Positions 3,505-62,670 of a DNA stretch of 64,000 nucleotides are shown here, in pieces. The stretch lies in contig NC_090364.1 in assembly GCF_035084215.1 (NCBI RefSeq), forward strand, positions 4,588,001 through 4,652,000. Reading direction: 5' to 3'. This stretch comes from Heptranchias perlo. Its lineage: Eukaryota. Both the position numbers and the translations under genes were made by a program. Numbering within the stretch: the first letter of the stretch is position 1; every line of letters starts with the position of its first letter. Under the pieces are notes generated by a model. It was not told the origin of the DNA and did no database searches. It saw only the letters and a program-made list of their open reading frames with translations.

Positions 3505-4947
3505 TTTTTTTTATTCGTTCACGGGATGTGGGCGTCGCTGGCAAGGCCGGCATTTATTGCCCATCCCTAATTGCCCTTGAGAAGGTGGTGGTGAGCCGCC
3601 TTCTTGAACCGCTGCAGTCCGTGTGGTGACGGTTCTCCCACAGTGCTGTTAGGAAGGGAGTTCCAGGATTTTGACCCAGCGACAATGAAGGAACGGCCGA
3701 TATATTTCCAAGTCGGGATGGTGTGTGACTTGGAGGGGAACGTGCAGGTGGTGTTGTTCCCATGCGCCTGCTGCCCTTGTCCTTCTAGGTGGTAGAGTTC
3801 GCGGGTTTGGGAGGTGCTGTCGAAGAAGCCTTGGCGAGTTGCTGCAGTGCATCCTGTGGATGGTGCACACTGCAGCCACAGTGCGCCGGTGGTGAAGGGA
3901 GTGAATGTTGAGGGTGGCGGATGGGGTGCCAATCAAGCGGGCTGCTTTATCTTGGATGGTGTCGAGCTTCTTGAGTGTTGTTGGAGCTGCACTCATCCAG
4001 GCAAGTGGAGAGTATTCCATCACACTCCTGACTTGTGCCTTGTAGATGGTGGAAAGGCTTTGGGGAGTCAGGAGGTGAGTCACTCGCCGCAGAATACCCA
4101 GCCTCTGACCTGCTCTCGTAGCCACAGTATTTATATGGCTGGTCCAGTTAAGTTTCTGGTCAATGGTGACCCCCAGGATGTTGATGGTGGGGGATTCGGC
4201 GATGGTAATGCCGTTGAATGTCAAGGGGAGGTGGTTAGACTCTCTCTTGTTGGAGATGGTCATTGCCTGGCACTTATCTGGCGCGAATGTTACTTGCCAC
4301 TTATGAGCCCAAGCCTGGATGTTGTCCAGGTCTTGCTGCATGCGGGCTCGGACTGCTTCATTATCTGAGGGGTTGCGAATGGAACTGAACACTGTGCAGT
4401 CATGAGCGAACATCCCCATTTCTGACCTTATGATGGAGGGAAGGTCATTGATGAAGCAGCTGAAGATGGTTGGGCCTCGGACACTGCCCTGAGGAACTCC
4501 TGCAGCAATGCCCTGGGGCTGAGATGATTGGCCTCCAACAACCACTACCATCTTCCTTTGCGCTAGGTATGACTCCAGCCACTGGAGAGTTTTCCCCCTG
4601 ATTCCCATTGACTTCAATTTTACTAGGGCTCCTTGGTGCCACACTCGGTCAAATGCTGCCTTGATGTCAAGGGCAGTCACTCTCACCCCACCTCTGGAAT
4701 TCAGCTCTTTTGTCCATGTTTGGACCAAGGCTGTAATGAGGTCTGGAGCCGAGTGGTCCTGGCGGAACCCAACTTAGCATCCGTGAGCAGGTTATTGGTG
4801 AGTAAGTGCCGCTTGATAGCACTGTCGACGACACCTTCCATCACGTTGCTGATGATTGAGAGTAGACTGATGGGGCGGTAATTGGCCGGATTGGATTTGT
4901 CCTGCTTTTTGTGGACAGGACATACCTGGGCAATTTTCCACATTGTC
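3505..4947 (-). mobile_element. 5'-truncated CR1/L2-group LINE (RT domain, inactivated)
   Basis: ORFs 4701-5099 and 3649-4728 give NYRPISLL, LDIKAAFDRVW, GVPQGSV and FAHD (catalytic D to H), with a frameshift between them. A-rich 3' end at ~3505. Interrupts a DeuSINE. Confidence 0.9.
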
Positions 4948-5290: not shown

Positions 5291-5545
5291 GCTGACACAA
5301 ATGGAGATGTTTGTGTGGGTGACATTGCATTCAGTAATCTTCACTCCCTCTCATTCTCACTGAATATCCTGAATTTTACCAAACAACATTTCATGAGAAT
5401 CAAAACCAAAACAATGACACATCCCACAATGCTTTGCCCAGTTGATGCCCCCATGCTGCCAATCCTCAGACACACCCATTCTCTATATTAGAACTGGGGA
5501 CGATTCACACCATCCATGGGATGGAATTTCCATTTCTCTGACCAA
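5291..5545. repeat. Near-invariant upstream block repeated in every array unit
   Basis: gctgacacaaatggagatg...ccatccatgggatggaatttccatttctctg recurs at ~9945, 15528, 30302, 35543, 40975, 46606 and inverted at 54385-54638 with very few differences. Confidence 0.9.
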
Positions 5546-10401: not shown

Positions 10402-10747
10402 TCAAAGGTGACCATCCACAGGTCCTGGCTGGATGCGGCCCGTGGGGGCGGTCGCTCCGACTCTCTGCCTCGCTTCCGCAGCATTCTCTGCGCCCGGGTG
10501 GCCCTGGAGAGGGAGCACACGGTGTCTGCTGGTAAACTTGAGGCTTTCCGAGACCGGTGGGAGGCGCAGAGCTCGGAGTACGTCCTCGACTCCGACAATA
10601 AAGTTATGATTTGAATCTGGTTTTGTTGGATTTCGTATTAAAGAAATGAAGGTGACAAAAATACAGGTGACACTGGGTCTAAAGACAGCAACACAAGTGT
10701 CCCATCTTAGAATTATTTTAGTCAAACAGAAGAAAAGAGGGAAAAAC
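10402..10747 (+). mobile_element. Old Tx1-group L1 3' fragment in ferritin promoter-upstream region
   Basis: KVTIHRS...RVALEREHTVSAGKLEAFRDRW...DSDNKVMI* is homologous to the ORF2 C-terminus at 19907-20120. Probable 13-bp TSD aaccca(a/t)aaagca at 10389-10401 and 10748-10760. The empty site is visible in copies 2, 4 and 7. Confidence 0.88.
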
Positions 10748-10804
10748 AACCCATAAAGCAGTGACATCACCGAGACCAATCACCCAAACCAGCCTGTATT
10801 CCAA

Positions 10805-16272: not shown

Positions 16273-17234
16273 ATGGCATCCCAAGTGTGTCAGAATTACC
16301 ACAAGGAGTGTGAGGATGGTGTCAACAAGCAGATCAATATGGAGCTCTATTCCTCCTATGTTTACCTCTCCATGGTAAGTCTTTTATTAATTGCCACTGC
16401 ATTCTCAGGAGTTGGAATTTCTCCAGTTCAATAAACTGGCTTTAAAGTATGTTTCTCTTGATTTCTTTCCACCTCCCTTGGAAGGCAAAGCTTTGGCCAG
16501 TGAGTACTTCCAGTGTGTAATACAGGGTGATCTTGTTGAGTTAATGGACTGCTCCTTGCAGTAGTTGCACTCCATTGTGGGGTTTAATATACTCCTGGCT
16601 CAGCTGCTGCCTGAGTTTGTAACAAATGCAGAAACCTGGTCAAGTGCTTGTCAGCATTTGTCCAATTTCAGTTTCAATGGGGTGACTGCAGCCAGTGAAA
16701 TGTTGACAGGTCCTCACTAGTTTTCTTGCCTTGAGACTCCTAGTGATGAAGCTTTCTTTACTGAGCCTAGATCTCTATTACACTAAATGATTGTACAGTG
16801 TAAAACTACTGGAATGGAGTAATGGTCCCTTGTTCCTCTCCTAATTTTAGATTAGAATGGAGAGTAAATGTAGTACTAGCTCAGAAGTGAAGTTTGAGAT
16901 GAAATGTAATCCCTGACCTTAATTGCTATTTCTCTCTGACCATTCATTATCCTATTGGGGAGGGGGAAGCTATTGAACATCTTGTGAAGTAAATTGAATT
17001 TCACTAGTAAACAAATGGTATCTAATTTCTAAAACTTTGAGCACTAATTGTATGTAGGTGAGATCTCTGTCTGACATGATGCTGTTTTCAATATTCTCTC
17101 CACAGTCCTGTTACTTTGACCGGGATGATGTTGCCCTGCGTCACTTTACCAAGTTTTTCAAGGAGCAGTCTCATGAGAACTGGGAGCACGCTGAGAAACT
17201 GCTGAAATTCCAGAATCGACGTGGTGGCTGTATT
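16273..17234 (+). pseudogene. Ferritin copy 4, divergent exon-2 subtype, truncated by a Tx1 insertion
   Basis: TATA 16187, exon 1 16273-16374, exon 2 from 17106 ([43 protein letters not shown]) cut at 17234 by a poly-T. Exons 3-4 absent. Confidence 0.92.
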
Positions 17235-19652
17235 TTTTTTCTACATTGTGAATCTGGGTATAACTGACTGTTTCTGGACCCACCAAGATGCCCATCAATT
17301 GTCCAAGAGATGGGATAACTTAGAACCGATTGTGCTCGACACTATCTGCGGGATGGGATTTCCATTTGTAAACTCATCGATCTCTGATATGTTGTGAAGC
17401 TCTGATTCTGGGAACAGATTTTTTTTTGTGATTTTTAGGCCCCCCTTTTATAAGATGGGGGTGTGTAGGGTGTGCTTAAATACTAGAAAACCAAATAATC
17501 CACAACCAAGTTTCAAATTAAAATTTTATTCTCCTCGTCCAGGATGCACTCCAGCCCCTGCGGTGCCCACCGGTCGCGGAAAGCCTCGAGCGTACCGGCA
17601 GACACCGCGTGCTCCATCTCCAGGGCCACCCGGGCGCGGAGCATTCGAGCAGGTCCTGGGAGAGGTCGAGCCGAGGGCAGACTAATTCAGCCGCAACGGC
17701 CTCGCCCACCAAGGACGCCCGACCCGGTGAAAGGGATACTGGCGTCAGTACACGGATCTGCGACCCCGCCCCCCCATCAGCAGGGTCTCCCCATCCCCCC
17801 CGAGAGGCACGGGCTCGGTCTCCTCCCCCAGAGAGGCGGACGTCCCCCGCCGCTGGTTAGAAATAATGGGCGGGGCCGCAGGATCCATGGCTGGCGCCAC
17901 CTCCCCTTCCACGGTGGGCCGTCCCTTAGCAGGGACCCCCCTCCGCTTCCAGGGAGTGGGGCCTTTCCTTCCCGGAGGGTCGCGGAGCTCCATGTCTGCT
18001 GGGGCCCCCACCTCCGCTCCCTCCTGATCACCCGCCAACCCGGGCTCTGTCGTGACCGCGAGATGTTGACTGGCCGCGGTCACGGCCTCGGGCTGACTGA
18101 GATCTTCTTTGTCCTGGGGACCAGCCTGTAAGTTCTTCCTCTTCCTCCGCGCCTTTCTCTGGCAAGGGTTCCCCTCCTCCCCCCCGCCCCCCCAGGCGGA
18201 GGCCTCGACGCCAACCTCCACCCGCGCAGTTGACTCTCCCGACGCGGGGGCGGGGTTGGGGGGAGGAGCGGTGGCGGCGCCAGCCCCGGCCGCCGTAGCT
18301 GTTTTGGCGGCCTGAGAGGCAGGGCAGTTCCTCTTCAGGTGCCCCACCTCCTTACAGGCATGGCACCGCCCACCCTCTGCCGTCCAAAAGACGCGGTAAG
18401 GGGTCCCCTCGTGGAGGGCGTTAAAGCCCCCCTCCGTAACCTCCTCCCGTGCCAGCTTGACGAATGCCTGGCGACGGAAGGAGTAAACATGCCGGAGGCT
18501 GTTCTCCCTGAGTCCGAGCGGCAGCGGCGTTACCCCCGACCTCACCTCCCCCAGTTGACGTAGGTGGGGGAGGAGGAGCTCGTCCGACAGGAAAGGCGGG
18601 ACGTTAGATAGAATGACCCGCTGCGCGGTGGCCTCCAGCGGGTCCACCAGCAGGAAGGTCCCGCCCACCGTGAGCCCCTTACTAAGGGTCAGGGACACCG
18701 CCCGCTCGGACCTCAGGAAGAACACCGCCCTCCCGTACGTTTTTGAGGCCGCGACGATGGCCGAGGGGCCGACAACCTCGGCCATGGCCTTTACGCAGGC
18801 CTCATTGGTCATGTTGGGGTGGGCGTAGCTCTTCACCCCATGCTTCCTTGTAATGAGGCGGAAAGGCGCCGGCCCAGCAGGAGCGGCACGAACTGTAGGA
18901 GCGGCCCCCGAGGTAACCGCCGCATACGTCCTGCTGGGTCCCGGCACCGGCGAAGATGGTGAAGCCATGACTTCAGGAGCCACACCTACCCCAAGTCTCA
19001 GGCCTTCGGATGGAAATTGGCCTGTTTTGAAAAGAATCCTTGAGGAAACCTCTGTCCCCGAATCCCAGTGCTTGGTTGGGAGAGGGCCCCTTTGTTGGTT
19101 TTTAAATTTTCCCCAAGAACACCCTGGAGAGCAAGGGAATATCCTGGAGAGCAAGAGAAGGAAGGAGGAAGGAAGGATGGATGGCAGAATGGGAAGGAGG
19201 GAGTCTGCAGGGGTAGGCTGCTGTGGAAGAGGGGCGGGGTTGCACCTTAAAAGGTGGATCTTCTTCTGGTGGGCAGGGGGAGGAGATGTCTTCCCCGAGA
19301 CAGCTGGAGCTGCCGAGGCTCAGTCCTCCAAAGATTTGAAAAAGAAAGAAAGTATCTTCACCCAGGCAGCTCCAGCTGTCCTGGGCCAGACACTTGGGGG
19401 GGACCCCTGTCCTCTAGTCTTCTTCCTCCCCCTACCTTCAGCCGACACACCTCACTGCACCGACCACCTCTTCCTCCCACTGGTTGGTGCTCTTTTTCTC
19501 CTTCTCCCTCCCTCCTTGTTGATGGTGGTTTCTCCTTCTTTCTCCTTCTCCCCAAGGGACCCAGGCAAGGGCCTGCTCTCTCTGCTCTCTCTGCTCTCCA
19601 CTCCACTCAGTGGCAGTCCAGCCACAAACACCTCCAAGGCCGAGCTGGTCTG
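17235..19652 (-). mobile_element. Tx1-group L1 element A: intact 5' end, ORF1, ~4.5-kb internal deletion, ORF2 tail, captured 3' segment
   Basis: 5'UTR and ORF1 (ATG 18968, MASPSS...CHACKEVGHLKRNC) match element B. At ~17646 ORF1 sequence is joined directly to the last ~130 nt of ORF2. Hairpin and A-tract at ~17420-17460, then unique 17241-17418 and a second A-tract. No TSD. Confidence 0.92.
17745..18968 (-). CDS. Tx1 ORF1 (truncated by frameshift), CCHC zinc knuckle
   Basis: ORF track 17745-19154; true start probably ATG 18968, by alignment to 25885. CX2CX4HX4C motif. Confidence 0.8.
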   Translation of the reverse strand: MASPSSPVPGPSRTYAAVTSGAAPTVRAAPAGPAPFRLITRKHGVKSYAHPNMTNEACVKAMAEVVGPSAIVAASKTYGRAVFFLRSERAVSLTLSKGLTVGGTFLLVDPLEATAQRVILSNVPPFLSDELLLPHLRQLGEVRSGVTPLPLGLRENSLRHVYSFRRQAFVKLAREEVTEGGFNALHEGTPYRVFWTAEGGRCHACKEVGHLKRNCPASQAAKTATAAGAGAATAPPPNPAPASGESTARVEVGVEASAWGGGGEEGNPCQRKARRKRKNLQAGPQDKEDLSQPEAVTAASQHLAVTTEPGLAGDQEGAEVGAPADMELRDPPGRKGPTPWKRRGVPAKGRPTVEGEVAPAMDPAAPPIISNQRRGTSASLGEETEPVPLGGDGETLLMGGRGRRSVY

Positions 19653-19681
19653 AACAAAGACACTTTCAGATTGGAGGGAGG
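19653..19681 (+). other. 29-bp remnant of ferritin promoter-upstream sequence between the two Tx1 elements
   Basis: aacaaagacactttcagattggagggagg resembles aacaaagagacactttcagatttgaggaagg at ~35934. Confidence 0.75.
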
Positions 19682-19906
19682 ATTTTTTTCTCTTTTTTTT
19701 TCTCTTTGGATGTTGTCAGAGTCCGTGGCCCACGGACTCTGCCTCAGGCTGATTGGGACAGACAATTAGTGCCAGTTAACAGCACTGCGATAAAGAGAGG
19801 AGTCGGTTCTCCATTTTTCTTTTTTTTTCCAAATTAGGCCCCCCTTTTATAAGAAGGGGGGGTGTGGGGTGTGCTTAAATACTAAAACCAAACCAAAACC
19901 AAGTGT

Positions 19907-22900
19907 TCAAATTAAAATTTTATTATCCTCGTCCAGGATGCACTCCAGCCCCTGCGGTGCCCACCGGTCGCGGAAAGCCTCGAGCGTACCGGCAGACACC
20001 GCGTGCTCCATCTCCAGGGCCACCCGGGCGCGGAGCATTCCGCGGAAGAGAGGCAGACAGGCCGAGCGACCGCCCACACGGACCACGATCATCCTAGACC
20101 TGTGGATGGCCACCTTGGACAGGCCCAGGAGCAGGCCCACGAGAACGTCCACCGACCTGCCCGCCCCCCTCCTCACCGGGCGGCCAAAGATCAGGAGCGT
20201 GGGACTGAAATGCAGCCAGAACTTGAGGAGCAGCCCCTTCAAATAATGGAACGGGGGCTGCAGTCTCGCACACCCGGTGTACAGATGGAACACGGACTCC
20301 TCCAGGCCGCAGAAATCGCAAGCGGCCTGGGTGTCCGTGAAATGGCGTAACCGGCGGTTGCACGCGACTGCTCCGTGCGCCACCCTCCACCCCAGATCCC
20401 CAAAGTAACACGGGAGGACCCCTGTATAGAGAGCCTCCCAATGGGGACCCCCGTCTCCGCCGGACGGCAGGATGGCACGCCAGGGCGTGTCCGGCCGAGA
20501 GACGAGGGCGAGGAAGTGGATGGTGTGCAGGAGCAGCCCGTACAGGAAATCCCTCCGCGCGGTGTGAAACGGCACGGAGGGAATTTCCGAGAGACGGCTC
20601 AAGTTGTGAGGCGCGGCCCCCCGAGGGAGGTTCCGGGGTTTGGCGCCGAGGAGGAATTCCGTCCGAACGGGGGTCAGGTCGGACGGGATGGCTCCGCACG
20701 CCTGAGCCGCCTCCACACCCCGAGTGGAGTCAGGGCCGAGCGCCGATTTCAACGCCCGGATGGCGGCGGCCGCGTCCCCGGCACGCCACAAGGACATCCG
20801 TGCGGCGAGCGCCCACGGCTCCAACCAACCCGACCCACCGCCATCCAGGACGTCCCTGACTCTGGTCACCCGACCGGCCACGGCCCTCCGCACCGACAGC
20901 CGCAAGTGGCCGAAGCCGATATCGCGGAGGAACGGATTCCCGAGCAGCGGCTCCTGCAGGACGGCCGCTACCCCTGACGGGCGAGAGCACCGACCGGAGG
21001 CGACCATGTTCCAGACCCTGAGCAGATCCTGGTAAAAGACAGGCAGCTCCTGCAAAGACGTGCGGCCGCCCACCAGCGAGACGAACAGGAGCTGCGTGTC
21101 GTAGTTCAGGCCGTGCAGCTGGCGGAAAAAATACGTCGCCAGCGCACGCCATCTAAGAGGACGCTCCGCGTACAGGTATCGCCGCAGCGTCCGAAGGCGG
21201 AAAGTTGCCACCTGGGTGCGGACGCACACCAGCCCCTGACCGCCCTCCCTAAGCGGGAGACTCAGGACCGCGGCAGCGACCCAGTGCATCCCTTTGGCCC
21301 AGAAGAAGTCGACGAACTTCCTCTGAATCTTGGCGACAAAATCAGGGGGGGGGGTCAAAGGAACCAACCGGTACCACAACATGGCGGCCACCAGCTGGTT
21401 TATGACCAGCACTCGACCCCTGTAGGATAACACTCGGAGCAGTCCTGTCCAGCGCGCCAGGCGAGCGGTGACTTTGGCCTCCAGCTCTACCCAGTTCGCC
21501 GGCCAGGCTTCCTCGGCAGGGCCGAGGTAGACTCCCAGGTACCGGAGGTGCGTGGTACTCCAGGCGAAAGCCCTGAGCTCCTCCGGCATGGAGTCCACCC
21601 GCCACTGACCCACCAGGAGTCCGGAACATTTCTCCCAGTTGATTCTTGCGGAGGACGCGGCAGAGTAGACCTCTTGGCACTCGCGCATTCTCCGCAAGTC
21701 AAGGGGATCGGTGACCACGAGGAGCACGTCGTCGGCGTAAGCCGAAAGGACGACCTCCACGCCCGGCTCGAGCAGAGCCAGTCCCGACAACCTCTTTCGC
21801 AAGAGGTGCAGGAAAGGCTCTACGCAGATGGTATATAATTGGCCGGACATGGGGCACCCCTGACGCACTCCTCTCCCGAAGCGAAGGGGCGCCGTCAAGG
21901 ATCCGTTAACCTTAATCAGACACTCCGCGGCGGCGTACAGAAGTCGGATCCGGGCGACAAAATGCGACCCGAATCCGAAAGCGCGCAGAGTCCCGAATAG
22001 ATACTCGTGATCCACCCTGTCGAACGCCTTCTCCTGATCCAAGGAAAGGAAGGCGACCGACAGACCAGCCCTCTGGGAGTGGTGGATCAGGTCCCGGACC
22101 AGGTGGATGTTATCGTGGATCGTCCGGCCCGGGACCGTGTAGGACTGGTCGGAGTGGATCATGTGGGCCAGCACGGTGCCCAGGCGAGCAGACATCGCCT
22201 TGGCAAAGACCTTATAATCCGTGCTGAGGAGGGAGACCGGGCGCCAGTTTTTAAGGTTGCGGAGATCCCCCTTCTTAGGCAGCAGGACCACGACCGCCCT
22301 GCGCCACGAAAGGGGCATCTCCCCGGTCGCCAGACATTCCCCCAGGACCCGCGCGTAGTCGCCCCCCAGGACGTCCCAGAAGGCCCTGAGGAACTCCACG
22401 GTCAGCCCGTCCAGCCCCGGGGATTTGCCCCTAGAGAGCTGGTGGAGGGCGCCGGTCAGCTCCGCCAAACTGAGCGGAGCGTCCAGACGCTCGGCGTCCT
22501 CCGGGCCGACCTTCGGCAAGTCCTCCCACAAAACTCTGCGCGCCTCCTCGCTGGACGGATCCGGAGAGAACAGAGCCTCGTAGTAAGATCGAGCACGGGC
22601 CCTGACTCCCTCCGGGTCCGAGACGAGGGACCCGTCGTCGGCCAGCAGCGTAAGGAGCTGCTTACGAGCCCCCCGCCGCTTTTCCAGCGAGTAGAAGAAG
22701 GGAGAGCCGCGGTCCAGGTCCCGCAGGAGCTGGAGCCGCGACCTCACGTACGCTCCTCGGGACCCGACCAGTTGCAGGTCCCTCAGAGCGTCCTTCCTCT
22801 CCTCGTACACCTGCCGCAGGGCCGGATCCTCGGCGGCCTGACCGAGACGGGACTCCAGGCCAAGCACCTCCTGCTCCAACCGCTTGACCTCGGACTCCCG

Positions 22901-23813
22901 CCCCTTAGTCGACCCCCTCGCGTACTCTTGACAGAAGAGGCGGACGTGAGCCTTGCCCACGTCCCACCATAGCCTCAAGGAGGAGAAGCCTCCCCGCTTC
23001 CCTCTCCAGTCGCTCCAGAACAGACGGAACGAGTCCCGGAACCGCGCGTCCTCCAGCAGCCGGTTGTTAAAGTGCCAGTACGCGGACCCCGACCGGGCGC
23101 GGAGCAGAGCGAGCTCCATCCACACCAGGTGGTGGTCCGAGCACGACACCGGCCGGATGGAGGCCGACGGGACGCAGGAGGCGTACGCCCGCGAAACGTA
23201 CAGGCGGTCGATTCTGGTGCTCCCCCCTCCGGCCCTCACAAAGGTGAACTGGCCGGAGTCGGGATGGAGATTCCGCCAGACGTCCACCAAGTCGAAGGAC
23301 CCGACCAGGTCCCTCAACTTCTCCGTCGCCGTTCGGGCACGCGCGGGACCGGAGCGGTCCCTCGCCTCGAGGGTACGGTTAAAATCCCCCCCGAGGATAA
23401 TGCACTCGCCGGCGTCGACGGAATTTAGGTAAGTGGACACTTCTTCAAAGAAGCTCACTTGCTCGCCCTCGGACCAGGGGGCGTACACGTTCACCAGGTG
23501 AAGCGGCACGTCCCCGTGGCGAAGGGCTACGTGGAGCAAGCGGCCCGGCACCGGCTCCTTGACCCCCAAGATCTCCGGCTGAAAAGTCGGGGCCAACAAG
23601 ATGGCCACCCCGCTCGAAACGCTGGCGAGGTGACTCAAGTAGACCCCCCCCTCCCCATTCCAGGATCCACGTGGCCTCGTCTCCCGGAACGGTGTGGGTT
23701 TCCTGCAGAAAGCACACCGCATACTTCCCGTCCCGCAGGACCGAGAACTTGTCAAATCTACGGCGGGCGTCTCTGCCGCCGTTGATGTTGAGGCTGGCTA
23801 TGGTTATCTCCAT
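19907..23813 (-). CDS. Tx1 ORF2: APE endonuclease + reverse transcriptase + C-terminal zinc finger (single +1 frameshift in a G8 run)
   Basis: MEITIASLNING...LQETH...LEWGGG (frame of ORF 23445-23831) continues as VYLSH...GDFN...RIDRLYVS...SDH...NWRPVSLL...LDQEKAFDRV...GVRQGCPMS...YADD...CDFCGLEESVFHLYTGC (frame of ORF 19907-23755). Removing one C from 23644-23651 joins the two frames. Confidence 0.93.
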
Positions 23814-23842
23814 GGCAAGAGCACAGCGCAACCTACTTAAAC

Positions 23843-25885
23843 CTAACGCGCGGAGGGAGCGGGGCCGCTAGTCGACCGCCACTCCCTCAAGAGCCCGGTG
23901 AGGAGGGATCTGAGCCGACGCAGCCCGACCCCGCCGTCGTCCCCTTCCGCGGCCACGGACGCGACGGCGGCCCGGACCGAGCGGATTAACTGCGCCGGCT
24001 CCGACCAACGGTCGAGGGCCAGCCGGACGCCATCGCGACGATGGCTCCAAACGGACACAAAATCCCGGAGTTCCTCAACGGGGATGAGGAGAGACTCGGT
24101 GCAGGGCACGAGGGCGTCCACCACCTCACTGGCGGCGAACTCCAAATCCTCCCCAGTGCCCACCACCGAGTTCCCGTCCTCCTCCGGGTCATCGTCGCTC
24201 GCGGCCGACCCACTCCCCGCACAGGGTGCGGAGAACGAGACGGCCGCGCCGGCCGGCCCCGCCTCTGTCACGATCCCACCCCCCGGATCGTCGGCAGAGG
24301 AGTCCCCCCCGGGCTCTACCGGGGGCTCCGGGTCAGAGGGCGGCGCCGGGCGGGGACCCTCCCCATCCTCCGAGCGGTGAAAAACCGGCACCCGGATATA
24401 AGGGGAACCCGGGGAAACCGGGGAGAACGTGTACTCAAGTTCTCCCACCTCCCCCGGCTCCGAGCCCAGATACTGGGAGGAGGGGGTCTCCCCACCCACG
24501 TCGCCACCGACCGACCCGGCCGGTGAGATATTTTGATTAAAACCCACCACCAGGTCGAGCAGGTCCTGGGAGAGGTCGAGCCGGGGGCAGACGAATTTGG
24601 CCGCAACGGCCTCGCCCACCCCGACACCCAGGACGCCCGACCCGGTGAACAGGGTAGTGTCGGGTAACTGCGGAGCCGCGACCCCCCCTATCGGCGGGGT
24701 CTCTCCATCCCCCCCGGGAGGCACGGGCACAATCTCCTCCCCCCGAGAGGTGGATGACCCCCGCCGCTGTTCGGATGTCACGGGCGGGGCCGCAGGATCC
24801 GCGACCGGCACCGACTCCCCTTCCACGGGGGGCCGTCCCTTAGCAGGGAGCCCGTTCGCTTCCGGGGAGTGGTGCCTCTTTTTCTTCCAGGAGGGTCGCG
24901 GAGGGAGGGGGGACTCCATGTCTGCTGGGACCCCCGCCTCCGCTCCCTCCTGATCACCCGCCAGCCCGGGCTCTGTCGCGACCGCGAGATGTTGACTGGC
25001 CGCGGTCACGGCCTCGGGCTGACTGAGATCTTCTCTGTCCCGGGGACCAGCCTCTAAATTCTTCCTCTTTCTCCGCGCTTTCTTCTGGCGAGGGTTCCCC
25101 TCCTCCCCCCTGGCGGAGGCCTCGACGCCAACCTCCACCCGCGCAGTTGACTCTCCCGACGCGGGGGCGGGGTTGGGGGGAGGAGCGGTGGCGGCGCCAG
25201 CCCCGGCCGCCGTAGCTGTTTTGGCGGCCTGAGAGGCAGGGCAGTTCCTCTTCAGGTGCCCCACCTCCTTACAGGCATGGCACCGCCCACCCTCTGCCGT
25301 CCAAAAGACGCGGTAAGGGGTCCCCTCGTGGAGGGCGTTAAAGCCCCCCTCCGTAACCTCCTCCCGTGCCAGCTTGACGAATGCCTGGCGACGGAAGGAG
25401 TAAACATGCCGGAGGCTGTTCTCCCTGAGTCCGAGCGGCAGCGGCGTTACCCCCGACCTCACCTCCCCCAGTTGACGTAGGTGGGGGAGGAGGAGCTCGT
25501 CCGACAGGAAAGGCGGGACGTTAGATAAAATGACTCGCTGCGCGGTGGCCTCCAGCGGGTCCACCGGCAGGAAGGTCCCGCCAACCGTGAGCCCCTTACT
25601 AAGGGCCAGGGACACCGCCCGCTCGGACCTCAGGAAGAACACCGCCCTCCCGTACATTTTTGAGGCCGCGACGATGGCCGAGGGGCCGACAACCTCGGCC
25701 ATGGCCTTTACGCAGGCCTCAATGGTCATGTTGGGGTGGGCGTAGCTCTTCACCCCATGCTTCCTTGTAATGAGGCGGAAAGGCGCCGGCCCAGCAGGAG
25801 CGGCACGAACTGTAGGAGCGGCCCCCGAGGTAACCGCCGCATACGTCCTGCTGGGTCCCGGCACCGGCGAAGATGGTGAAGCCAT
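23843..25885 (-). CDS. Tx1 ORF1 (nucleic-acid-binding protein, CCHC knuckle, long disordered C-terminus)
   Basis: Uninterrupted ORF from ATG 25885, with ILSNVPPF and CHACKEVGHLKRNC motifs. Confidence 0.9.
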   Translation of the reverse strand: MASPSSPVPGPSRTYAAVTSGAAPTVRAAPAGPAPFRLITRKHGVKSYAHPNMTIEACVKAMAEVVGPSAIVAASKMYGRAVFFLRSERAVSLALSKGLTVGGTFLPVDPLEATAQRVILSNVPPFLSDELLLPHLRQLGEVRSGVTPLPLGLRENSLRHVYSFRRQAFVKLAREEVTEGGFNALHEGTPYRVFWTAEGGRCHACKEVGHLKRNCPASQAAKTATAAGAGAATAPPPNPAPASGESTARVEVGVEASARGEEGNPRQKKARRKRKNLEAGPRDREDLSQPEAVTAASQHLAVATEPGLAGDQEGAEAGVPADMESPLPPRPSWKKKRHHSPEANGLPAKGRPPVEGESVPVADPAAPPVTSEQRRGSSTSRGEEIVPVPPGGDGETPPIGGVAAPQLPDTTLFTGSGVLGVGVGEAVAAKFVCPRLDLSQDLLDLVVGFNQNISPAGSVGGDVGGETPSSQYLGSEPGEVGELEYTFSPVSPGSPYIRVPVFHRSEDGEGPRPAPPSDPEPPVEPGGDSSADDPGGGIVTEAGPAGAAVSFSAPCAGSGSAASDDDPEEDGNSVVGTGEDLEFAASEVVDALVPCTESLLIPVEELRDFVSVWSHRRDGVRLALDRWSEPAQLIRSVRAAVASVAAEGDDGGVGLRRLRSLLTGLLREWRSTSGPAPSAR

Positions 25886-26594
25886 GACTGAGAGCCACAC
25901 CCACCCCAAGTCTCAGGCCTTTGGATGGAAATTGGCCTTTTTTTAAAAAGAATTCTTGAGGATACCTCTCTCCCCGAATCCCAGTGCTTGGTTGGGAGAG
26001 GGCCCCTTTGTTGTTTTTATATATTCCCAGAATACCCCGGGGAGCAAGGGAATATCCCAGAGAGCAGGAGAAGGTGGGAGGGATGGATGGTAGAATGGGA
26101 AGGAGGGAGTCTGCAGGGGTAGGCTGCTGCAGAAGTGGGTGGAAGAGGGGCGGGGTTGCACCTTAAAAGGTGGATCTTCTTCTGCCTGTCTTCCGGTGGG
26201 CAGGGGGAGGAGATGTCTTCCCCTAGACAGCTGGAGCTGCCTAGGCTCAGTCCTCCAAAGATTTGAAAAAGAAAGTAACTTCACCCAGGCAGCTCCAGCT
26301 GTCCCGGGCCAGACACTTGGGGGGGACCCCTGTCCTCTGAAGTCTTCTTCCTCCCCCTACCTTCAGCCGACACACCTCACTGCACCGACCACCTCTTCCT
26401 CCCACTGGTTGGTGCTCTTTTTCTCCTTCTCCCTCCCTCCTTGTTGATGGTGGTTTCTCCTTCTTTCTCCTTCTCCTTCTCCTTCTCCCCAAGGGACCCA
26501 GGCAAGGGCCTGCTCTCTCTGCTCTCTCTGCTCTCCACTCCACTCAGTGGCAGTCCAGCCACAAACACCTCCAAGGCCTTGCTGGTCTGTATTG

Positions 26595-30300: not shown

Positions 30301-30780
30301 AGCTGACACAAATGGAGATGTTTGTGTGGGTGACATTGCATTCAGTAATCTTCACTCCCTCTCATTCTCGCTGAATATCCTGAATTTTACCAAACAACAT
30401 TTCATGAGAATCAAACATAAAAATGACACATCCCACAATGCTTTGCCCAGTTGATGCCCCCATGCTGCCAATCCTCAGACACACCCATTCTCTATATTAG
30501 AACTGGGGACGATTCACACCATCCATGGGATGGAATTTCCATTTCTCTGTCCAATGGTTGGTTTGCAAATTCACTCAAGACGACTTGATTGCGTTGAATA
30601 TTGTCTCATCATCACTGTTACTTGCAAGTAATAAACTTGACCAGATTATGAAAAGCCACTTCAGTAAAAATGACCAGATTCAGTGAAAATGTCAAATTAT
30701 TATCAAATAATTCAAAGTTGTGATTCTGAGAGATTTAAACAAAGAGGCACTATGAGGGAGGTCAAAGGTCCCAAAAAGAA

Positions 30781-31105
30781 CCAAAGGTGACCATCCACAG
30801 GTACAAGACGGACACGGCCTGTGGGGGCGGTCGCTCCGACTCTCGTCCGCAGCATTCTCTGCGCCCACTTGGCCCTGGAGAAGAGCATTCCGTGTCTGCC
30901 GTTATGGTTGAGGCTTTCCGCGACTGGTGGGAGCAGCAGGGACTGGAGCGAATCCTCGACTCTAACAATAAAGTTATAATTTGATTCTGGTTTTGTTTGA
31001 TATCGTGATAAAGAAAACAAGATGTCCAAAAAAAAATACAGGTGACACTGGGTCTCAAGACAGTTGCACAAGTGTCCTATCTCAGAATTATTTTAGTCCA
31101 AAAAA
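30781..31105 (+). mobile_element. Old Tx1 3' fragment (duplicate of the 10402 insertion)
   Basis: Same site and breakpoints; EAFRDWWEQQGLERILDSNNKVII*. Confidence 0.85.
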
Positions 31106-31393
31106 AAGCAGTGATATCACTGAGACCAATCACCCAAACCAGCCTGTATTCCAAAGCTCTGATTGGCTCTGGGTATCAACCTCTCCTCCACCACGCCCCT
31201 GTCCTTTGTTAATTGGTGCCTGGATTCATGGACGATTACTGATTGGTTATCGGGAATTGTCAATCATCATTGGTGATGTCATTCCTTGCTTCAATGCGGG
31301 CTGTCCCAGTAGTATAAATACAAGAGCTTGTGGGGGAAGAGGGTAGTTGTAGAACTATCTAGGTGATAGTGAAAATATAAAGATATAGTGACA

Positions 31394-41433: not shown

Positions 41434-41762
41434 ACCAAAGGTGACCATCCACAGGTACAAGACGGACACGGCCTGCGGGGGCGGTCGCTCCGACTCTCGT
41501 CCGCAGCATTCTCTGCGCCCACTTGGCCCTGGAGAAGAGCATTCCGTGTCTGCCGTTATGGTTGAGGCTTTCCGCGACTGGTGGGAGCAGCAGGGACTGG
41601 AGCGAATCCTCGACTTTAACAATAAAGTTATAATTTGATTCTGGTTTTGTTTGATATCGTGATAAAGAAATCAAGATGCCTAAAAAAAAATACAGGTGAC
41701 ACTGGGTCTCAAGACAGTTACACAAGTGTCCCATCTTAGAATTATTTTAGTCCAAAAAAAAA
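41434..41762 (+). mobile_element. Old Tx1 3' fragment (duplicate of the 10402/30781 insertion)
   Basis: Near-identical to 30781-31105. Confidence 0.85.
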
Positions 41763-42043: not shown

Positions 42044-44242
<2,199 letters not shown>

Positions 44243-46984: not shown

Positions 46985-47005
46985 TCAAAGTTATGCAATG
47001 CAATG
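46985..47005. other. Array orientation switch (inversion breakpoint)
   Basis: + oriented promoter-upstream sequence ends at aattcaaagttatg. It is followed by caatgcaatgtcatccacacaaaca, the reverse complement of ~46620-46646. All array units to the right are on the - strand. Confidence 0.88.
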
Positions 47006-47037
47006 TCATCCACACAAACATCCCTATTTGTGTCAGC

Positions 47038-47372
47038 TGTGGCTCAGTGGTAGCACTCTCACTGAGGGTTCAAGTCCCAATCCAAAGACTTGAGGACAAA
47101 ATCTAGGCTGACTGACAGAGTGCTGCAGTTTCGGAGATAGAGTCTTTCATTAAACAGAGACCCATTCTGCTCTCTCAGGTGGACATAAAAGATCCCTAAG
47201 CACTATTTTGAGAAAGAGCAGGGGAGTTCTCCCCAGTGTCCTGGCCAATCTTTATCCCTCAAACAACATCACTAAAACAGATTATCTGGTCTTTATTTCA
47301 TTGTTGTGTGTGGGATCTTCCTGTGGGCAAATTCACATCAACATTACAACACTTCAAAAGTACTTCATTGGC
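47038..47372 (+). mobile_element. DeuSINE in inverted array unit (divergent variant)
   Basis: gtggctcagtggtagcactctc...gggttcaagtccc head and Deu core; shares variants with 54639-54990. Confidence 0.7.
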
Positions 47373-47726
47373 CGCGCTTCTTTGTGGTCAGACTGTAGGA
47401 AACGTATCAGCACGGAGTGGGGTGAACTTTGATCGAATATTTTTTGAGGTGTAAACAGTTAACCCCCATTAGCCCAGTTGTGACCTCAGTGTGGGGAATG
47501 TTTGCAGCTGATCCACATCCAGGTTCAGCACAGAGTGAGCTGAAGACTTTTTGTCTGAAATATGAAGTCATCAAACCCATCAACAAATCCACACCCACTC
47601 GTACAATTGTGGCTCAGCAACGTATGAAATGTGGTGATATTGATCCCCCAAAAGTACTTTTAAGAGAAGCAAAGACATTAACATGGAATGACTGAAGACT
47701 GCAATTTCATCACACCCAGTCCAGTT

Positions 47727-50133
47727 ATTTGTTATTCATTCATGGGATGTGGGTGTCGCTGGCGAGGCCAGCATTTATTGCCCATCCCTAATTGCCCTTG
47801 AGAAGGTGGTGGCGAGCCGCCTTCTTGAACCGCTGCAGTCCGTGTGGTGAAGGTTCTCCCACAGTGCTGTTAGGAAGGGAGTTCCAGGATTTTGACCCAG
47901 CGACGATGGAGGAACGGCGATATATTTCCAAGTCGGGATGGTGTGTGACTTGGAGGGGAATGTGTAGGTGGTGTTGTTCCCATGTGCCTGCTGCCCTTGT
48001 CCTTCTAGGTGGTAGAGGTCGCGGGTTTGGGAGGTGCTGTCGAAGAAGCCTTGGCGAGTTGCTGCAGTGCATCCTGTGGATAGTACACACTGCAGCCACT
48101 GTGCACCGGTGGTGAAGGGAGTGAATGTTGAGGGTAGTGGATAGGGTGCCAATCAAGCGGGCTGCTTTGTCCTGGATGGTGCCAAGCTTCCTGAGTGTTG
48201 TTGGAGCTGCACTCATCCAGGCAAGTGGAGAGTATTCCATCACACTCCTGACTTGTGCCTTGTCGATGGTGGAAAGGCTTTGGGGAGTCAGGTGGTGAGT
48301 CACTCGCCGCAGAATACCCAGCCTCTGACCTGCTCTTGTAGCCACAGTATTTATATGGCTGGTTCTGTTCAGTTTCTGGTCAATGGTGACTCCCAGGATG
48401 TTGATGGTGGGGGATTCGGCGATGGTAATGCCGTTGAATGTCAAGGGGAGGTGGTTAGACTCTCTCTTGTTGGAGATGGTCATTGCCTGGCATTTGTGTG
48501 GCGTGAATGTTACTTGCCACTTATCAGCCCAAGCCTGGATGTTGTCCAGGTCTTGCTGCATGCGGGCTCAGACTGCTTCATTATCTGAGGGGTTGCGAAT
48601 GGAACTGAACACTGTGCAATCATCAGCGAACATCCCCATTTCTGACCTTATGTTGGAGGGAAGGTCATTCATGAAGCAGCTGAAGATGGTTGGGCCTCGG
48701 ACACTGCCCTGAGGAACTCCTGCAGCAATGTCCTGGGGCTGAGATGTTTGGCCTCCGACAACCACTACCATCTTCCTTTGTGCTAGGTATGACTCCAGCC
48801 ACTGGAGAGTTTTCCCCCTGATTCCCATTGATTTCAATTTTACTAGGGCTGCTTGGTGCCACACTCGGTAAAATGCTGCCTTGATGTCAAGGGCAGTAAC
48901 TCTCACCTCACCTCTGGAATTCAGCTCTTTTGTCCATGTTTGGACCAAGGCTGTAATGAGGTCTGGAGCCGAGTGGTCCTGGCGGAAACCAAACTGAGCA
49001 TCGGTGAGCAGGTTATTGGTGAGTAAGTGCCGCTTGATAGCACTGTCGCGACACCTTCCATCACTTTGCTGATGATTGAGAGTAGACTGATGGGGCGGTA
49101 ATTGGCCAGATTGGATTTGTCCTGCTTTTTGTGGACAGGACATACCTGGGCAATTTTCCACATTGTCAGGTAGATACCAGTATTGTAGCTGTACTGGAAC
49201 AACTTGGCTAGGGGCGCAGCTAGTTCTGGAGCACAAGTCTTCAGCACTACAGCCAGGATGTTGTCGGGCCCATAGCCTTTGCTGTATCCAGTGCACTCAG
49301 CCGTTTCTTGATGTCACGTGGAGTGAATTGAATTGGCTGAAGACTGGCTTCTGTGATGGTGCGGATATCTGGAGGAGGCCGAGATAGATCTTCCACTCAG
49401 CACTTCTCGCTGCAGATGGTTGCAAATGCTTCAGCCCTGTCTTTTACACTCACGTGCTGGACTCCGCCATCATTGAGGATGGGGATGTTTGCAGAGCCTC
49501 CTGCTCCCGTCAGTTGTTTAATTGTCCACCACCATTCACGACTGGATGTGGCAGGACTGCAGAGCTTTGATCTGATCTGTTGGTTGTGGAATCGCTTAGC
49601 TCTGTCTACAGCATGTTGCTTCCGCTGTTCAACATGCATGTAGTCCTGAGTTGTAGCTTCACCAGGTTGGCACCTAATTTTAAGTTATGCCTGGTGCTGC
49701 TCCTGGCTTGCTCTTCCATGCTCCTCATTGAACCAGGGTTGATCCCCTGGCTTGTTGGTAATGGTAGAGTGAGGAATATGCCGGGCCATGAGATTACAGA
49801 TTGTGCTGGAATACAATTCTGTTGCTGCTGATGGCCCACAGCGCCTCATGGATGCCCAGTTTTGAGCTGCTAGATCTGTTCTGAATCCATCCCATTTAGC
49901 ATGATGATAATGCCACACAACACGTTGGATGATGTAATCAGTGCGAAGACGGGACTTTGTCTCCACGAGGACAGTGCGGCGGTCACTCCTACCAATACTA
50001 TCATGGAAAGATGCATCTGCGACAGGTAGATTGGTGAGGACGAGGTCAAGTAGGTTTTTGCTTTGTGTTGGTTGGCTCACCACCTGCTGCAGACCCATTC
50101 TGGCAGCTATATCCTTCAGGGCTCGGTCAGTAG
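47727..50133 (-). mobile_element. 5'-truncated CR1/L2-group LINE (same family as 3505-4947), degraded ORF2
   Basis: ORFs 49685-50098 (endonuclease end, LDLVLTN...SD), 48921-49247, 48568-49296 (FADD) and 47788-48561, with several frameshifts and stops. Confidence 0.9.
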
Positions 50134-50999
50134 TGTGGTGGGAGAGTGTCAGAATATCTATTTAACATGGTTTAAATTATTTACTTCCAGAAGGATTACA
50201 TTTCGCTGGAGTACAGTCCCACAGGTATTACTCTCCCTTGAGTACCTTACCCAATGGCTTAATCATGGGGGGTGGTGGTAGTAGAAAGTGAGTTAATAGA
50301 ACCAAGGTCAATCCTCTCCCCCCTGGGAAACCATACTTTCCCCATAGAGGTCAGTGGATAGTCAGCAAATGTGCCAATTCGGTTGATTTTAACCGGTACC
50401 CCCCTCCACACTGAATTGCAGTCCCCCTAGTGCCAGGCGTTCACACAATGCTGGTCTGTATAGCAGTTATGTGCTGCTTTACCACACAGCTTGCCCAACC
50501 ATCTACAGCAGCAAAGATGAGTTTGGTTTAGTGAGCTCCGCCCCTGTGTCCCACAATAATAACTGAATGAGAACTGTAGCAGTTTAGTTTTTATAAAAAA
50601 CCTGGCTATCTCATCCCAGGGCAGATGCCTTCTGTAAATAGGATTGTTCATTGGACTGAAATTATTAACACCAGCTCACTTCCCTGCTGTTTTAAACAGG
50701 GGAAAAAGTGTTACAGCAGCTGCTATGTTGTTGCACTGAGGGGTTAAAGAGAGTTGCCATTTTCACCAGGAGAATATTCATCACCAGTGGTAACAGTAAC
50801 TTGTGCTGCAGCATTGCTCTTCACTGCTGGTTTGAAATTAACAAATACAATTTGTATTCAAGGTAAACACAGAATTGAAATTAGATCTTCAACATGTGGC
50901 CCTGAACATCCAAGTCAATAAATTAGAATTACTCCAGAAGGGGATTAAAAAAAATTTACAGGTCTCAATCCCAGGCTAAAGTTATGCCACAGTATAGTA

Positions 51000-51299
51000 T
51001 AATTCAGGTTTGACAAACTAAATGTTAAATTAAGTGGTTGCTTATTTTTCAAATTGTGACAACAAAATCCAATTCAATATTAAACAGTTTATTTCCAGAT
51101 AGTGACAGTTACTATTAGATTTCACATCAAGAGCCCAGGCCTCACAGGTTTGTGCAAAGTCACACAAGTCATCACTGCTACAGGATTTGGGGGGGGTTGG
51201 AAAGAAGTGGGGTGTCAATATTATACAACAGGAGCATGACCAATAAGCTATACCCCTGCAGTCAGTTTAATCACTCTCCCCCAGCATGTGCTTGTCAAA
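51000..51299 (-). pseudogene. Relic of another ferritin copy: last codons of exon 4 plus 3'UTR
   Basis: The - strand tttgacaagcacatgctgggggagagtgattaa (FDKHMLGESD*, 51299-51267) is fused via a tttg microhomology to the 3' flank of copy 9. Confidence 0.82.
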
Positions 51300-51481
51300 T
51301 TATGTTACTGATAAATAAGCAACAGCTCAAGATTTTAAACAAGGAGACAAAACCAGTCCAGTGTTCACTGTTTATTTACAGTTACTACCACATTCCACCT
51401 CAAGAGCCCAACACAAATCATCATTTAGAGGATGGGCAGTCTCAAGACTATAAAAAAATAGGCTATAACCCTGCAGTCAGT

Positions 51482-53566
<2,085 letters not shown>

Positions 53567-53851
53567 CTTTATTATATCTTATATTTTCACTATCACCTGG
53601 ACAGTTCGACATCTACCCTCTTCCCTCACAAGCTCTTGTATTTATGCTACTGGGACAGCCCGCATTGAAGCAAGGAATGACATCACCAATGATGATTGAC
53701 AATTCCCGATAACCACTCAGGAATCGTCCATGAATCCAGGCACCAATTAACAAAGGACAGGGGTGTGGTGGAGGAGAGGTTGATACCCAGAGCCAATCAG
53801 AGCTTTGGAATACAGGCTGGTTTGGGTGATTGGTCTCAGTGATATCACTGC

Positions 53852-54178
53852 TTTTTTTTGGACGAAAATAATTCTAAGATGGGACACTTGTGTAACTGTC
53901 TTGAGACCCAGTGTCACCTGTATTTTTTTTTGGACATCTTGATTTCTTTATCACGATATCAAACAAAACCAGAATCAAATTATAACTTTATTGTGAGAGT
54001 CGAGGATTCGCTCCAGTCCCTGCTGCTCCCACCAGTCGCGGAAAGCCTCAACCATAACGGCAGACACGGAATGCTCTTCTCCAGGGCCAAGTGGGCGCAG
54101 AGAATGCTGCGGACGAGAGTCGGAGCGACTGCCCCCACAGGCCGTGTCCGTCTTGTACCTGTGGATGGTCACCTTTGG
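53852..54178 (-). mobile_element. Old Tx1 3' fragment (duplicate of the promoter insertion)
   Basis: Reverse complement of 30781-31105. Confidence 0.85.
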
Positions 54179-54638
54179 TGCTTTTTGGGTTCTTTGACCT
54201 CCCTCATAGTGCCTCTTTGTATAAATCTCTCAGAATCACAACTTTGAATTATTTGATAATAATTTGATATTTTCACTGAAGTGGCTTTTCATAATCTGGT
54301 CAAGTTTATTACTTGCAAGTAACAGTGATGATGAGACAATATTCAACGCAATCAAGTCGTCTTGAGTGAATTTGCAAACCAACCATTGGACAGAGAAATG
54401 GAAATTCCATCCCATGGATGGTGTGAATCGTCCCCAGTTCTAATATCGAGAATGGGTGTGTCTGAGGATTGGCAGCATGGGGGCATCAACTGGGCAAAGC
54501 ATTGTGGGATGTGTCATTTTTATGTTTGATTCTCATGAAATGTTGTTTGGTAAAATTCAGGATATTCAGCGAGAATGAGAGGGAGTGAAGATTACTGAAT
54601 GCAATGTCACCCACACAAACATCTCCATTTGTGTCAGC

Positions 54639-54990
54639 TGTGGCTCAGTGGCAGCACTCTCACCTCAGAGTCAGAAGGTTGTGGGTTCAAGTCCCAATCC
54701 AAAGACTTGAGGACAAAATCTAGGCTGACTGACAGAGTGCTGCAGTTTCGGAGATAGAGTCTTTCATTCAAAAGAGACCCAGTCTTCCCTCTCAGGTGGA
54801 TGTAAAAGATCCCTAAGCACTATTTTGAGAAAGAGCAGGGGTGTTCTCCCCAGTGTCCTGGCCAATGTTTATCCCTCAAGCAACATCACTAAAACAGATT
54901 ATGTGGTTTTTATTTCATTGCTGTTTGTGGGATCTTGCTGTGGGCAAATTCACTTGTACATTACCACACTTCAAAAGTACTTCATTGGCC
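54639..54990 (+). mobile_element. DeuSINE in inverted array unit
   Basis: tRNA-like head plus Deu core. Confidence 0.7.
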
Positions 54991-61063: not shown

Positions 61064-62011
61064 TTAGTTTAAACCCTCCCCAACAGCACTGGCAAACACT
61101 CCCCCTAGGACATTGGTTCCAGTCCTGCCCAGATGCAGACCGTCCAATTTGTACTGGTCCCACCTCCCCCAGAACCGGTTCCAATGGCCCAGGAATTTGA
61201 ATCCCTCCCTCTTGCACCATCTCTCAAGCCACGTATTCATCTTAGCTATCCTGTCATTCCTACTCTGACTTGCCCGTGGCACTGGTAGCAATCCTGAGAT
61301 TACTACCTTTGAGGTCCTACTCTTTAGTTTAACTCCTAACTCCCTAAATTCAGCTTGTAGGACCTCATCCTGTTTGTTACCTATATCGTTGGTGCCTATA
61401 TGCACCACGACAACTGGCTGTTCACCCTCCCCCTCCAGAATGTCCTGCAGCCGCTCCGAGACATCCTTGACCCTTGCACCAGGGAGGCAACATACCATCC
61501 TGGAGTCTCGGTTGCGTCCGCAGAAACGCCTGTCTATTCCCCTTACAATCGAGTCCCCTATCACTATAGCTCTGCCACTCTTTTTCCTGCCCTCCTGTGC
61601 AGCAGAGCCAGCCACGGTGCCATGAACCTGGCCACTGCCACCTTCCCCTGGTGAGCCATCTCCCCCAACAGTATCCAAAACGGTATACCTGTTTTGGAGG
61701 GAGATGACCGCAGGGGACCCCTGCACTGCCTTCCTACTCTTCCTCTGTCTGTTGGTCACCCATTCACTATCTCCCTCAGTAATTTTTATCTGTGGTGTGA
61801 CCAACTCACTGAACGTGCTATCCACGACTTTCTCAGCATCGCGGATGCTCCAAAGTGAGTCCATCCGCAGCTCCAGAGCCGTCAAGTGGTCAAACAATAG
61901 CTGCAGCTGGACACACTTCCCGCAGGTGAAGGAATCAGGGATACAGGAAGGAGCCCTGAATTCCCACATCTCACAAGAGGAACATGACACGGCTCTAGGA
62001 TCTCCTGCCAT
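61064..62011 (-). CDS. CR1 ORF1 (zinc finger/leucine zipper + SGNH esterase-like domain)
   Basis: CSSC...CGKC, heptad leucines, VIGDS, VHIGTND, DGLH; intact 315 aa. Confidence 0.9.
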   Translation of the reverse strand: MAGDPRAVSCSSCEMWEFRAPSCIPDSFTCGKCVQLQLLFDHLTALELRMDSLWSIRDAEKVVDSTFSELVTPQIKITEGDSEWVTNRQRKSRKAVQGSPAVISLQNRYTVLDTVGGDGSPGEGGSGQVHGTVAGSAAQEGRKKSGRAIVIGDSIVRGIDRRFCGRNRDSRMVCCLPGARVKDVSERLQDILEGEGEQPVVVVHIGTNDIGNKQDEVLQAEFRELGVKLKSRTSKVVISGLLPVPRASQSRNDRIAKMNTWLERWCKREGFKFLGHWNRFWGRWDQYKLDGLHLGRTGTNVLGGVFASAVGEGLN

Positions 62012-62319
62012 GACTCAACCCTTAAGTTAGCTTAACAACAACTGCAATGTCAAGAGAAAAAAAAGGAAAGAAAAACTACTTACCACTCCCTTTAAGGAGT
62101 TTACTCCTTTAAATTGTTCTCAATTTAGAGAATGTTAACTACACTAGGGACCTTGATTCACTAAAAAATAAACGCTACTTCCTATAAGACCTGCAGACCT
62201 TCCCTTTCCTTTTACTTTAGTTACTGTAGATAAGTAGAAATACTCACCTGAACCTACTCCCCAATCAGGTGCCTCCCCTGTGTCGCGTCCCGATCTGATT
62301 CCTGACGTCACTTCGAACT

Positions 62320-62670
62320 CGGTCGCAGCTCCGCTCGGCTCGGCTCCTCTCAGCGCTCTGAAATCCCGCCTTTTATCAGACGCTCCCTCCGCTCGGCTCG
62401 GCTCCTCTCAGCTGTTCTCAGCGCTCTGAAATCCCGCCTTTTATCGGATGCTCCCTCCGCTCGGCTCGGCTCCTCTCAGCTGTTCTCAGCGCTCTGAAAT
62501 CCCGCCTTTTATCGGACGCTCCCTCCGCTCGGCTTGGCTCCTGTCAGCTGTTCTCAGCGCTCTGAAATCCCGCCTTTTATCGGTCGCAGCTCCGCTCCGC
62601 TCGGCTCCTCTCAGCTGTTCTCAGCGCTCTGAAATCCCGCCTTTTATCGGACGCTCCCTCCTCTCCTCTC
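62320..62670 (-). repeat. Five ~68-bp GC-rich tandem monomers at the CR1 5' end
   Basis: gccttttatc recurs at 62368, 62436, 62504, 62572 and 62639. Confidence 0.92.

Follow-up and report, generated by a model that had tools for sequence, protein, structure and literature searches.

3′ transduction has, to our knowledge, been quantified almost only for the mammalian L1 and SVA elements. A nanopore study of human L1 puts the share of insertions with a 3′ transduction at ~25%, with 71% (248/349) shorter than 100 bp, and the accessible text of this source describes transductions that often have poly(A) on both sides, differ in length with their source, can be passed through generations and have a poly(A) signal before 79% of their ends (PMC13009371). 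A short-read survey in humans gives, in the part available, a median L1 transduction of 63 bp and a rate of 2.72% per element (PMC9311842). Ten dog L1 insertions, described as ‘parentless’ in the accessible text, share one transduced sequence that has no known source (PMC13103737). For Tx1 elements, the accessible parts of one source deal with target preference and with 5′ extensions of SINEU, not with 3′ tails (PMC4494074), and for stickleback the available excerpt invokes 3′ transduction by Tx1 as a possibility only (PMC4989455). The word ‘transduction’ is absent from the accessible portions of PMC3381678 and PMC3747384, and the literature searched (mostly non-subscription, without Repbase entries or supplements, and in part as excerpts) yielded no measurement of 3′ transduction in a Tx1 family or a cartilaginous fish.

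The window, the whole stretch of 64,000 nucleotides of Heptranchias perlo DNA analysed here (contig NC_090364.1, positions 4,588,001 to 4,652,000), holds four Tx1 insertions, and all four (4/4, a tally that counts an old insertion whose family's normal 3′ end is uncertain) are composed of a Tx1 3′ end, a short A-run, 63-178 bp of foreign sequence and a second A-run. The presumed process is a known one, and well known in mammals; the clade is new for it, and it may be unusually common at this locus.

Tx1 insertions in a tandem ferritin array

Most of the window is a tandem array of ferritin genes, whose repeat units are ~77-97% alike by self-BLAST; the Pfam Ferritin match (E 2.8e-10) comes from a paralogous exon 2 in the array. 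One ferritin unit, at 46997-55460, is inverted relative to the rest. A host segment at 5448-5538 recurs in seven paralogues, 5′ of each ferritin gene, with ~70 bp near-invariant among the eight, and is possibly a conserved regulatory element or an old repeat. The array also holds two RT-bearing insertions of another LINE family (3507-4947 and 47728-49167, 96% identical), and a further LINE with endonuclease and RT is present as two inverted copies (55521-57596 and 58883-60971, 97.5% identical), with an esterase-type ORF1 at 61064-62014. A tandem repeat of 4.7 copies of a 68-bp unit occupies 62348-62665.

A motif and tblastn scan located seven Tx1 ORF2 ends in the window, all of them from four insertions: elements A, B and C, and one older insertion represented by four array copies (Table 1). 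The four sites are a promoter (twice), an exon 2 and an intron 1, with no evident common target (n=4). The ORF2 of element B carries the Pfam domains RVT_1 and Exo_endo_phos (AP endonuclease and RT); a single frameshift interrupts it in a G-run near 23650. Over 1253 aligned residues (96% of the query) it matches the 149 kDa protein of Xenopus Tx1 at 50% identity. Among partial matches to the element protein, the best come from a stingray (70%, covering 34% of the query) and a horn shark (67%, covering 27%), which points to a cartilaginous fish as the host. The 681-aa ORF1 product has a weak zf-CCHC zinc knuckle (E 0.0016; 18.9 bits, just below the cut-off of 20.8). On these comparisons the family of element B is assigned to the Tx1 clade of LINEs, an assignment made from domains and pairwise identity.

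Table 1. Tx1 insertions and their 3′ features in the window
Feature	Positions	Strand	Description
Tx1 element A	17233..19652	-	complete 5′ end, 5′ UTR and ~400 ORF1 codons joined to last ~130 bp of ORF2, 3′ UTR and extension (self-BLAST, tblastn, junctions)
A, C-run/G-run hairpin	17440..17461	-	TATAAA at 17447-17452 in loop
A, first A-run	17419..17427	-	A9
A, extension	17241..17418	-	178 bp; no poly(A)-signal hexamer
A, second A-run	17233..17240	-	A8, abutting ferritin exon 2
Ferritin promoter remnant	19653..19682	+	30 bp between 3′ end of B and 5′ end of A; alignment to 7 promoter paralogues
Tx1 element B	19683..26589	-	full length; ORF1 23843-25885, ORF2 19907-23813
B, C-run/G-run hairpin	19839..19862	-	TATAAA at 19846-19851 in loop
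B, first A-run	19814..19828	-	A9 G A5
B, extension	19708..19813	-	106 bp; palindrome with 12-bp arms at 19717-19741 (fold z -2.99)
B, second A-run	19683..19707	-	G-interrupted, 25 nt
Tx1 element C	42687..43013	+	5′-truncated, in ferritin intron 1; 7-bp target-site duplication 42680-42686 / 43011-43017
C, first A-run	42815..42830	+	
C, extension	42831..42999	+	169 bp; AGTAAA variant 9 nt before second run
C, second A-run	43000..43013	+	
Old insertion, copy E	30779..31107	+	3′ fragment with ORF2 tail in ferritin promoter; 7-8-bp duplication
E, first A-run	31028..31036	+	A9
E, extension	31037..31099	+	63 bp
E, second A-run	31100..31107	+	A8
Old insertion, array paralogue F	41435..41762	+	
Old insertion, array paralogue G	53852..54178	-	
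Old insertion, array paralogue D	10402..10757	+	same 5′ junction; second A-rich run longer and more mixed

Elements A and B (17233-26589) lie head to tail, 30 bp apart, share an identical complete 5′ terminus and both sit at target deletions, without target-site duplications. Between the flanks of A, on its 5′ side, ~3.6 kb of ferritin repeat is missing; in its other flank (17204-17232) exon 2 of one ferritin copy is disrupted and the remainder of that gene is missing. Element B sits between the next ferritin copy and that copy's upstream promoter sequence, ~54 bp of which is missing at the 5′ junction. The internal joint of element A, from mid-ORF1 to the end of ORF2, has a 2-nt overlap, and A may have arisen from two elements fused by a later deletion.

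The ORF2 tails of A and B agree at 131/132 positions and that of C with either at 50/52 (96-99%), which is in keeping with the view of a sequence-only reading of this DNA that the three are young copies of one family. The same view fits less well with the 3′ UTRs, which are only 87-89% alike (63/71, 65/75 and 62/70), and A, B and C are therefore separate lineages. Comparison of A (17645-19652) with B (24555-26589) gives 98-100% identity over the first ~600 bp of ORF1, then 146/188 in a later block, with many UTR indels, a contrast that suggests mosaic or fast-evolving segments. A perfect inverted repeat of 15 bp, flanking a loop rich in pyrimidines, is kept in the 5′ UTRs of both elements (19299-19380 and 26227-26302), although the loops differ in length.

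Extensions between two A-runs

That A, B and C each carry unrelated sequence followed by a second A-tract, as the sequence-only reading had claimed, is correct, and its limits for the extensions of A and C stand; the start it gave for that of B, ~19700, falls inside the second A-run, the true one being 19708. The reading had counted three copies of three and proposed a fairly fixed read-through length. It had overlooked the fourth, older insertion, which has the same build with only 63 bp, and the lengths over the four insertions thus span an almost threefold range, which speaks against a fixed length; transductions this short are usual for human L1. Among the four, five of the six pairs of extensions are mutually unrelated (150-475 of 500 shuffles score as well), and the sixth, A with C, is marginal (10/500) on account of a common 9-mer. 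A stretch of 49 bp in extension A is weakly similar to the near-invariant host segment 5′ of the ferritin genes (E 0.004, against 1.4 for the best of 500 shuffles).

Empty paralogues exist for all four insertion sites. In C, the second copy of the 7-bp duplication comes after the second A-run and the paralogous introns are empty, and in the old insertion too the duplication lies after the second run. Behind the second run of A and of B, host sequence resumes directly (with ferritin exon 2 and the ferritin promoter, respectively), and the paralogues lack the extension. The paralogues reject a pre-existing host flank as the source, and together with the duplications at C and the old insertion they show that the extensions arrived as part of the Tx1 insertions. 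As a control for chance, an A-run of at least seven was found 50-250 nt from a random host position in 2.6% (plus strand) and 11.7% (minus strand) of 5000 draws. None of the window's copies has stacked tails.

Several other identities for the extensions were considered and rejected. Element A does not draw its 5′ UTR from extension B: A and B begin with an identical terminus, and a 30-bp piece of ferritin promoter separates this extension from A. Known RNAs gave no Rfam match at the gathering score, and the 14 weak matches lie far below it; the three of these that touch an extension do so only in the first 15-36 bp of that of C and are centred on the hairpin. Coding exons are not indicated by the five open frames, which have no Pfam match above noise, and weak searches with two peptides of extension A found no relative. 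A 56-aa antisense frame in the extension of C had three matches (E 7.5e-6 to 6.5e-5) to repeat-rich Ig-like proteins, two with prokaryote-style names and one unnamed, through a Thr-rich motif that reflects composition. The reverse strand of extension B has what we take to be an LTR-like look.

The family's own 3′ end offers a possible processing site. A hairpin shared by the copies can be drawn, as had been proposed, yet the folds of the 3′ UTRs of A, B and C are not more stable than those of shuffled sequences (z 0.42, 0.35 and -0.76), and its interpretation as a selected structure was rejected. It had also been stated that no AATAAA adjoins the first A-tract; none does, but TATAAA lies in the hairpin loop 17-19 nt 5′ of the first A-run in all three young copies, and AATAAA occurs ~100 nt upstream of that run, at the end of ORF2. 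The loop TATAAA is a variant poly(A) signal. Before the second A-run, a signal-like hexamer is present in one of the four tails only, the AGTAAA of C at 9 nt. The loop hexamer at 19846-19851, 17447-17452 and 42799-42804 reads TATAAAAG and is followed by a G-run; this combination, ~25 nt before the first A-run, also fits a TATA box, and a 3′ promoter at this point is conceivable from the letters.

Copies in contigs of related animals

Part of the end of element A is contained in 13 public runs, none of which (0/13, in a search of DNA kind) is an RNA data set. Four were compared: X1 and X2 (one sample, organism A), and X5 and X9 (organism B). Contigs were placed at 85% likeness on 17180-19900, which covers extensions A and B; the summed contig depth is not equivalent to copy number. 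Fixed differences from the window mark organism A as another individual or species. In it, the shared Tx1 3′ end reaches 31,830x at 19856, single-locus-looking contigs have 10-13x, and extension A has 407x at 17343 (6 contigs) and extension B 184x at 19795 (2 contigs), or ~1.3% and ~0.6% of the 3′-end depth, respectively, as contig depth and not copy number. The value at 19795 was taken for extension B and a bin of 592x, into which contigs of the A-run can spill, was set aside. Because they are multicopy yet make up ~1% of the 3′-end depth, extensions A and B are neither a family-wide UTR, a possibility that the sequence-only reading had itself raised against its proposal, nor tags of a single locus. 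Its suggestion that each copy is barcoded by its donor locus is accordingly too strong, and extensions A and B are at best tags of donor lineages.

One contig of 12.5x (~19756-19863) bridges the hairpin, the A-run and extension B independently of the window assembly, with a junction 3 nt shorter, and ends before the second run. The other contig at 19795 (~170x) does not reach 19807, and its copies are either without Tx1 upstream or clipped there. Among the contig joints listed (12 of 18), A-runs abut extension B at 19760 in two cases, one of them with a UTR that ends short of the hairpin, and at 19762; a register at ~19810 also occurs in the contigs, as against 19813 in the window. A B-type end runs on into 32 other letters and an A-type end into 29 other letters and another ORF2 tail; behind one hairpin come A8 and a further ORF2 tail, behind another A-rich letters only (again among these 12 of 18). 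No target-site duplication was seen at these 12 of 18 joints. The three joints at 19760-19762 of extension B are too few (n=3) for calling a target. Two contig joints also place Tx1 pieces 29-32 nt apart, in a joint table that covers gaps of up to 40 nt.

In organism B, the UTR of the family of A, B and C is nearly absent (0-5.6x at 19819-19900), as is extension B. In extension A, depth is 120-157x across 17271-17361 but zero at 17343 and 17348, and the match is thus partial; this cover suggests a host sequence that exists independently of this Tx1 family. In organism B, the ORF2 tail (17544-17634) has a summed depth of ~390,000x but a different 3′ UTR, which points to a sister Tx1 family that is far larger and ends differently. 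A search for further copies in metagenomes gave no pattern match (0) and 138 peptide-pattern stretches, none of which was confirmed.

Origin of the extensions and comparison with known systems

The extensions are best explained by 3′ transduction, the origin proposed from the sequence alone, which is on the whole partly supported. In the form that we consider probable, a LINE of the Tx1 clade carried out partnered 3′ transduction and its tails were inherited by daughter lineages. The 3′ end of the family, with a TATAAA variant in the loop of a C/G hairpin, would be a weak processing site; donor transcripts would run through the A-tail into the flank, ending 60-180 nt further on, and the read-through RNA would be copied by target-primed reverse transcription. 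A full-length daughter bearing a tail would hand it on, and each tail would then mark a donor lineage of tens of copies rather than one locus. With tails A and B each at ~1% of the 3′-end depth, the number of tail lineages would be on the order of a hundred if most copies are tailed. Priming on the next genomic A-run was rejected as the routine ending, as host runs of A7 or more within 50-250 nt, found in 3-12% of draws, are too rare unless donors were selected.

Several observations weigh against transduction. A donor locus (a full-length element with a duplication and the extension without the second A-run) is not among the contig joints listed, a signal hexamer precedes the second run in only one of four tails compared with 79% of human L1 ends in the accessible text of PMC13009371, and the stacked tails expected from routine read-through in every generation are missing. 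In addition, the 5′ registers of extension B vary, whereas one donor should fix the boundary, a variation that calls for template switching or for several donors located within one repeat. Because of this variation a reading with two templates stays alive, although we hold it to be unlikely: the extensions would be short poly(A)-tailed RNAs or non-autonomous retroposons, one of which the reverse transcriptase copied before jumping to the Tx1 A-tail, or a short element later inserted into the Tx1 A-tail with its duplication invisible. Ragged 5′ truncation would give just such a multicopy sequence that adjoins A-runs at variable registers, once after a UTR ending before the hairpin; extension B also has a stable fold, and template jumping is discussed in the accessible part of PMC4494074 for the crocodilian SINEU, which Tx1 mobilises. 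This reading nevertheless needs four of four insertions to have involved four unrelated RNAs, and the extensions have no Rfam match of their own, neither at the gathering score in the window nor at E values up to 5, a comparison that speaks to known RNAs and not to SINEs as such.

Inherited transduction differs mainly in rate from a further scenario, in which each tail dates from a single ancient acquisition and by now simply serves a subfamily as its 3′ UTR, with transduction today no commoner than usual. The divergence of the UTRs into separate lineages, the multicopy state of tails A and B and the lack of stacked tails are in keeping with this scenario, which we judge rather improbable: with each tail at ~1% of the 3′-end depth, on the order of a hundred subfamilies would be needed, which is itself frequent acquisition, and both B-type and A-type ends run on into other sequences. 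Far less credible still is an artefact or host rearrangement, whether mis-assembly or filler DNA from the repair of deletions at A and B. It is true that neither of these two elements has a duplication and that each lies at a deletion (~3.6 kb for A, ~54 bp for B), and the frameshift of B in a G-run may be a sequencing error. However, clean duplications follow the second run in both C and the old insertion, four paralogues share the old tail, the junction of hairpin and extension B recurs in independent contigs, and filler would not end in an A-run every time.

At a transduction rate of 25%, three tailed copies of three would have P = 0.016 and four of four P = 0.004, and the one-sided 95% lower bounds are 37% and 47%, respectively; these figures overstate the case, as the window had been flagged for the pattern, the end of the old family is uncertain and the sample is biased. 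A high tail rate in the family is plausible. The stronger claim of the sequence-only reading, that transduction is routine, finds no support, as it rests on four insertions in a window picked for the feature. Given the transduction model, the odds that tailed copies form the majority of the family are roughly even. We put forward as a tentative and somewhat doubtful extension that the family lacks a functional 3′ end, that almost all insertions stop 60-180 nt inside borrowed flank, in most cases with no poly(A) signal, and that donor lineages with heritable tails number on the order of a hundred. Under this extension the whole donor genealogy could be read from one assembly. Should most copies be tailed, active donors could be counted and their descendants traced in a shark or ray genome, it would be seen how a LINE RNA ends without a canonical signal, and the consensus of repeat libraries for this family would stop short, leaving the tails unannotated. 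A rate like that of mammals would make the locus an ordinary example of 3′ transduction in a new clade.

Compared with described systems, element B resembles the Tx1 of Xenopus laevis (149 kDa ORF2) in its two ORFs, its AP endonuclease and RT, and its 50% identity. Many Tx1 families are target-specific according to the accessible parts of PMC4494074 and PMC3747384, whereas the four sites here have no evident common target. Partnered 3′ transduction by human L1 and SVA, as described in the available text of PMC13009371 and PMC9311842, shares with the present locus the element end, A-run, short flank, second A-run and duplication, as well as the short lengths; it differs in its rate (~25% or ~2.7%, against 4/4), in its signal (79%, against 1/4) and in that the donors have been mapped. 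The multicopy tails found here resemble the shared transduced sequence of canine L1, although that case, in the accessible portion of PMC13103737, concerns a mammalian L1 and draws on whole-genome mapping.
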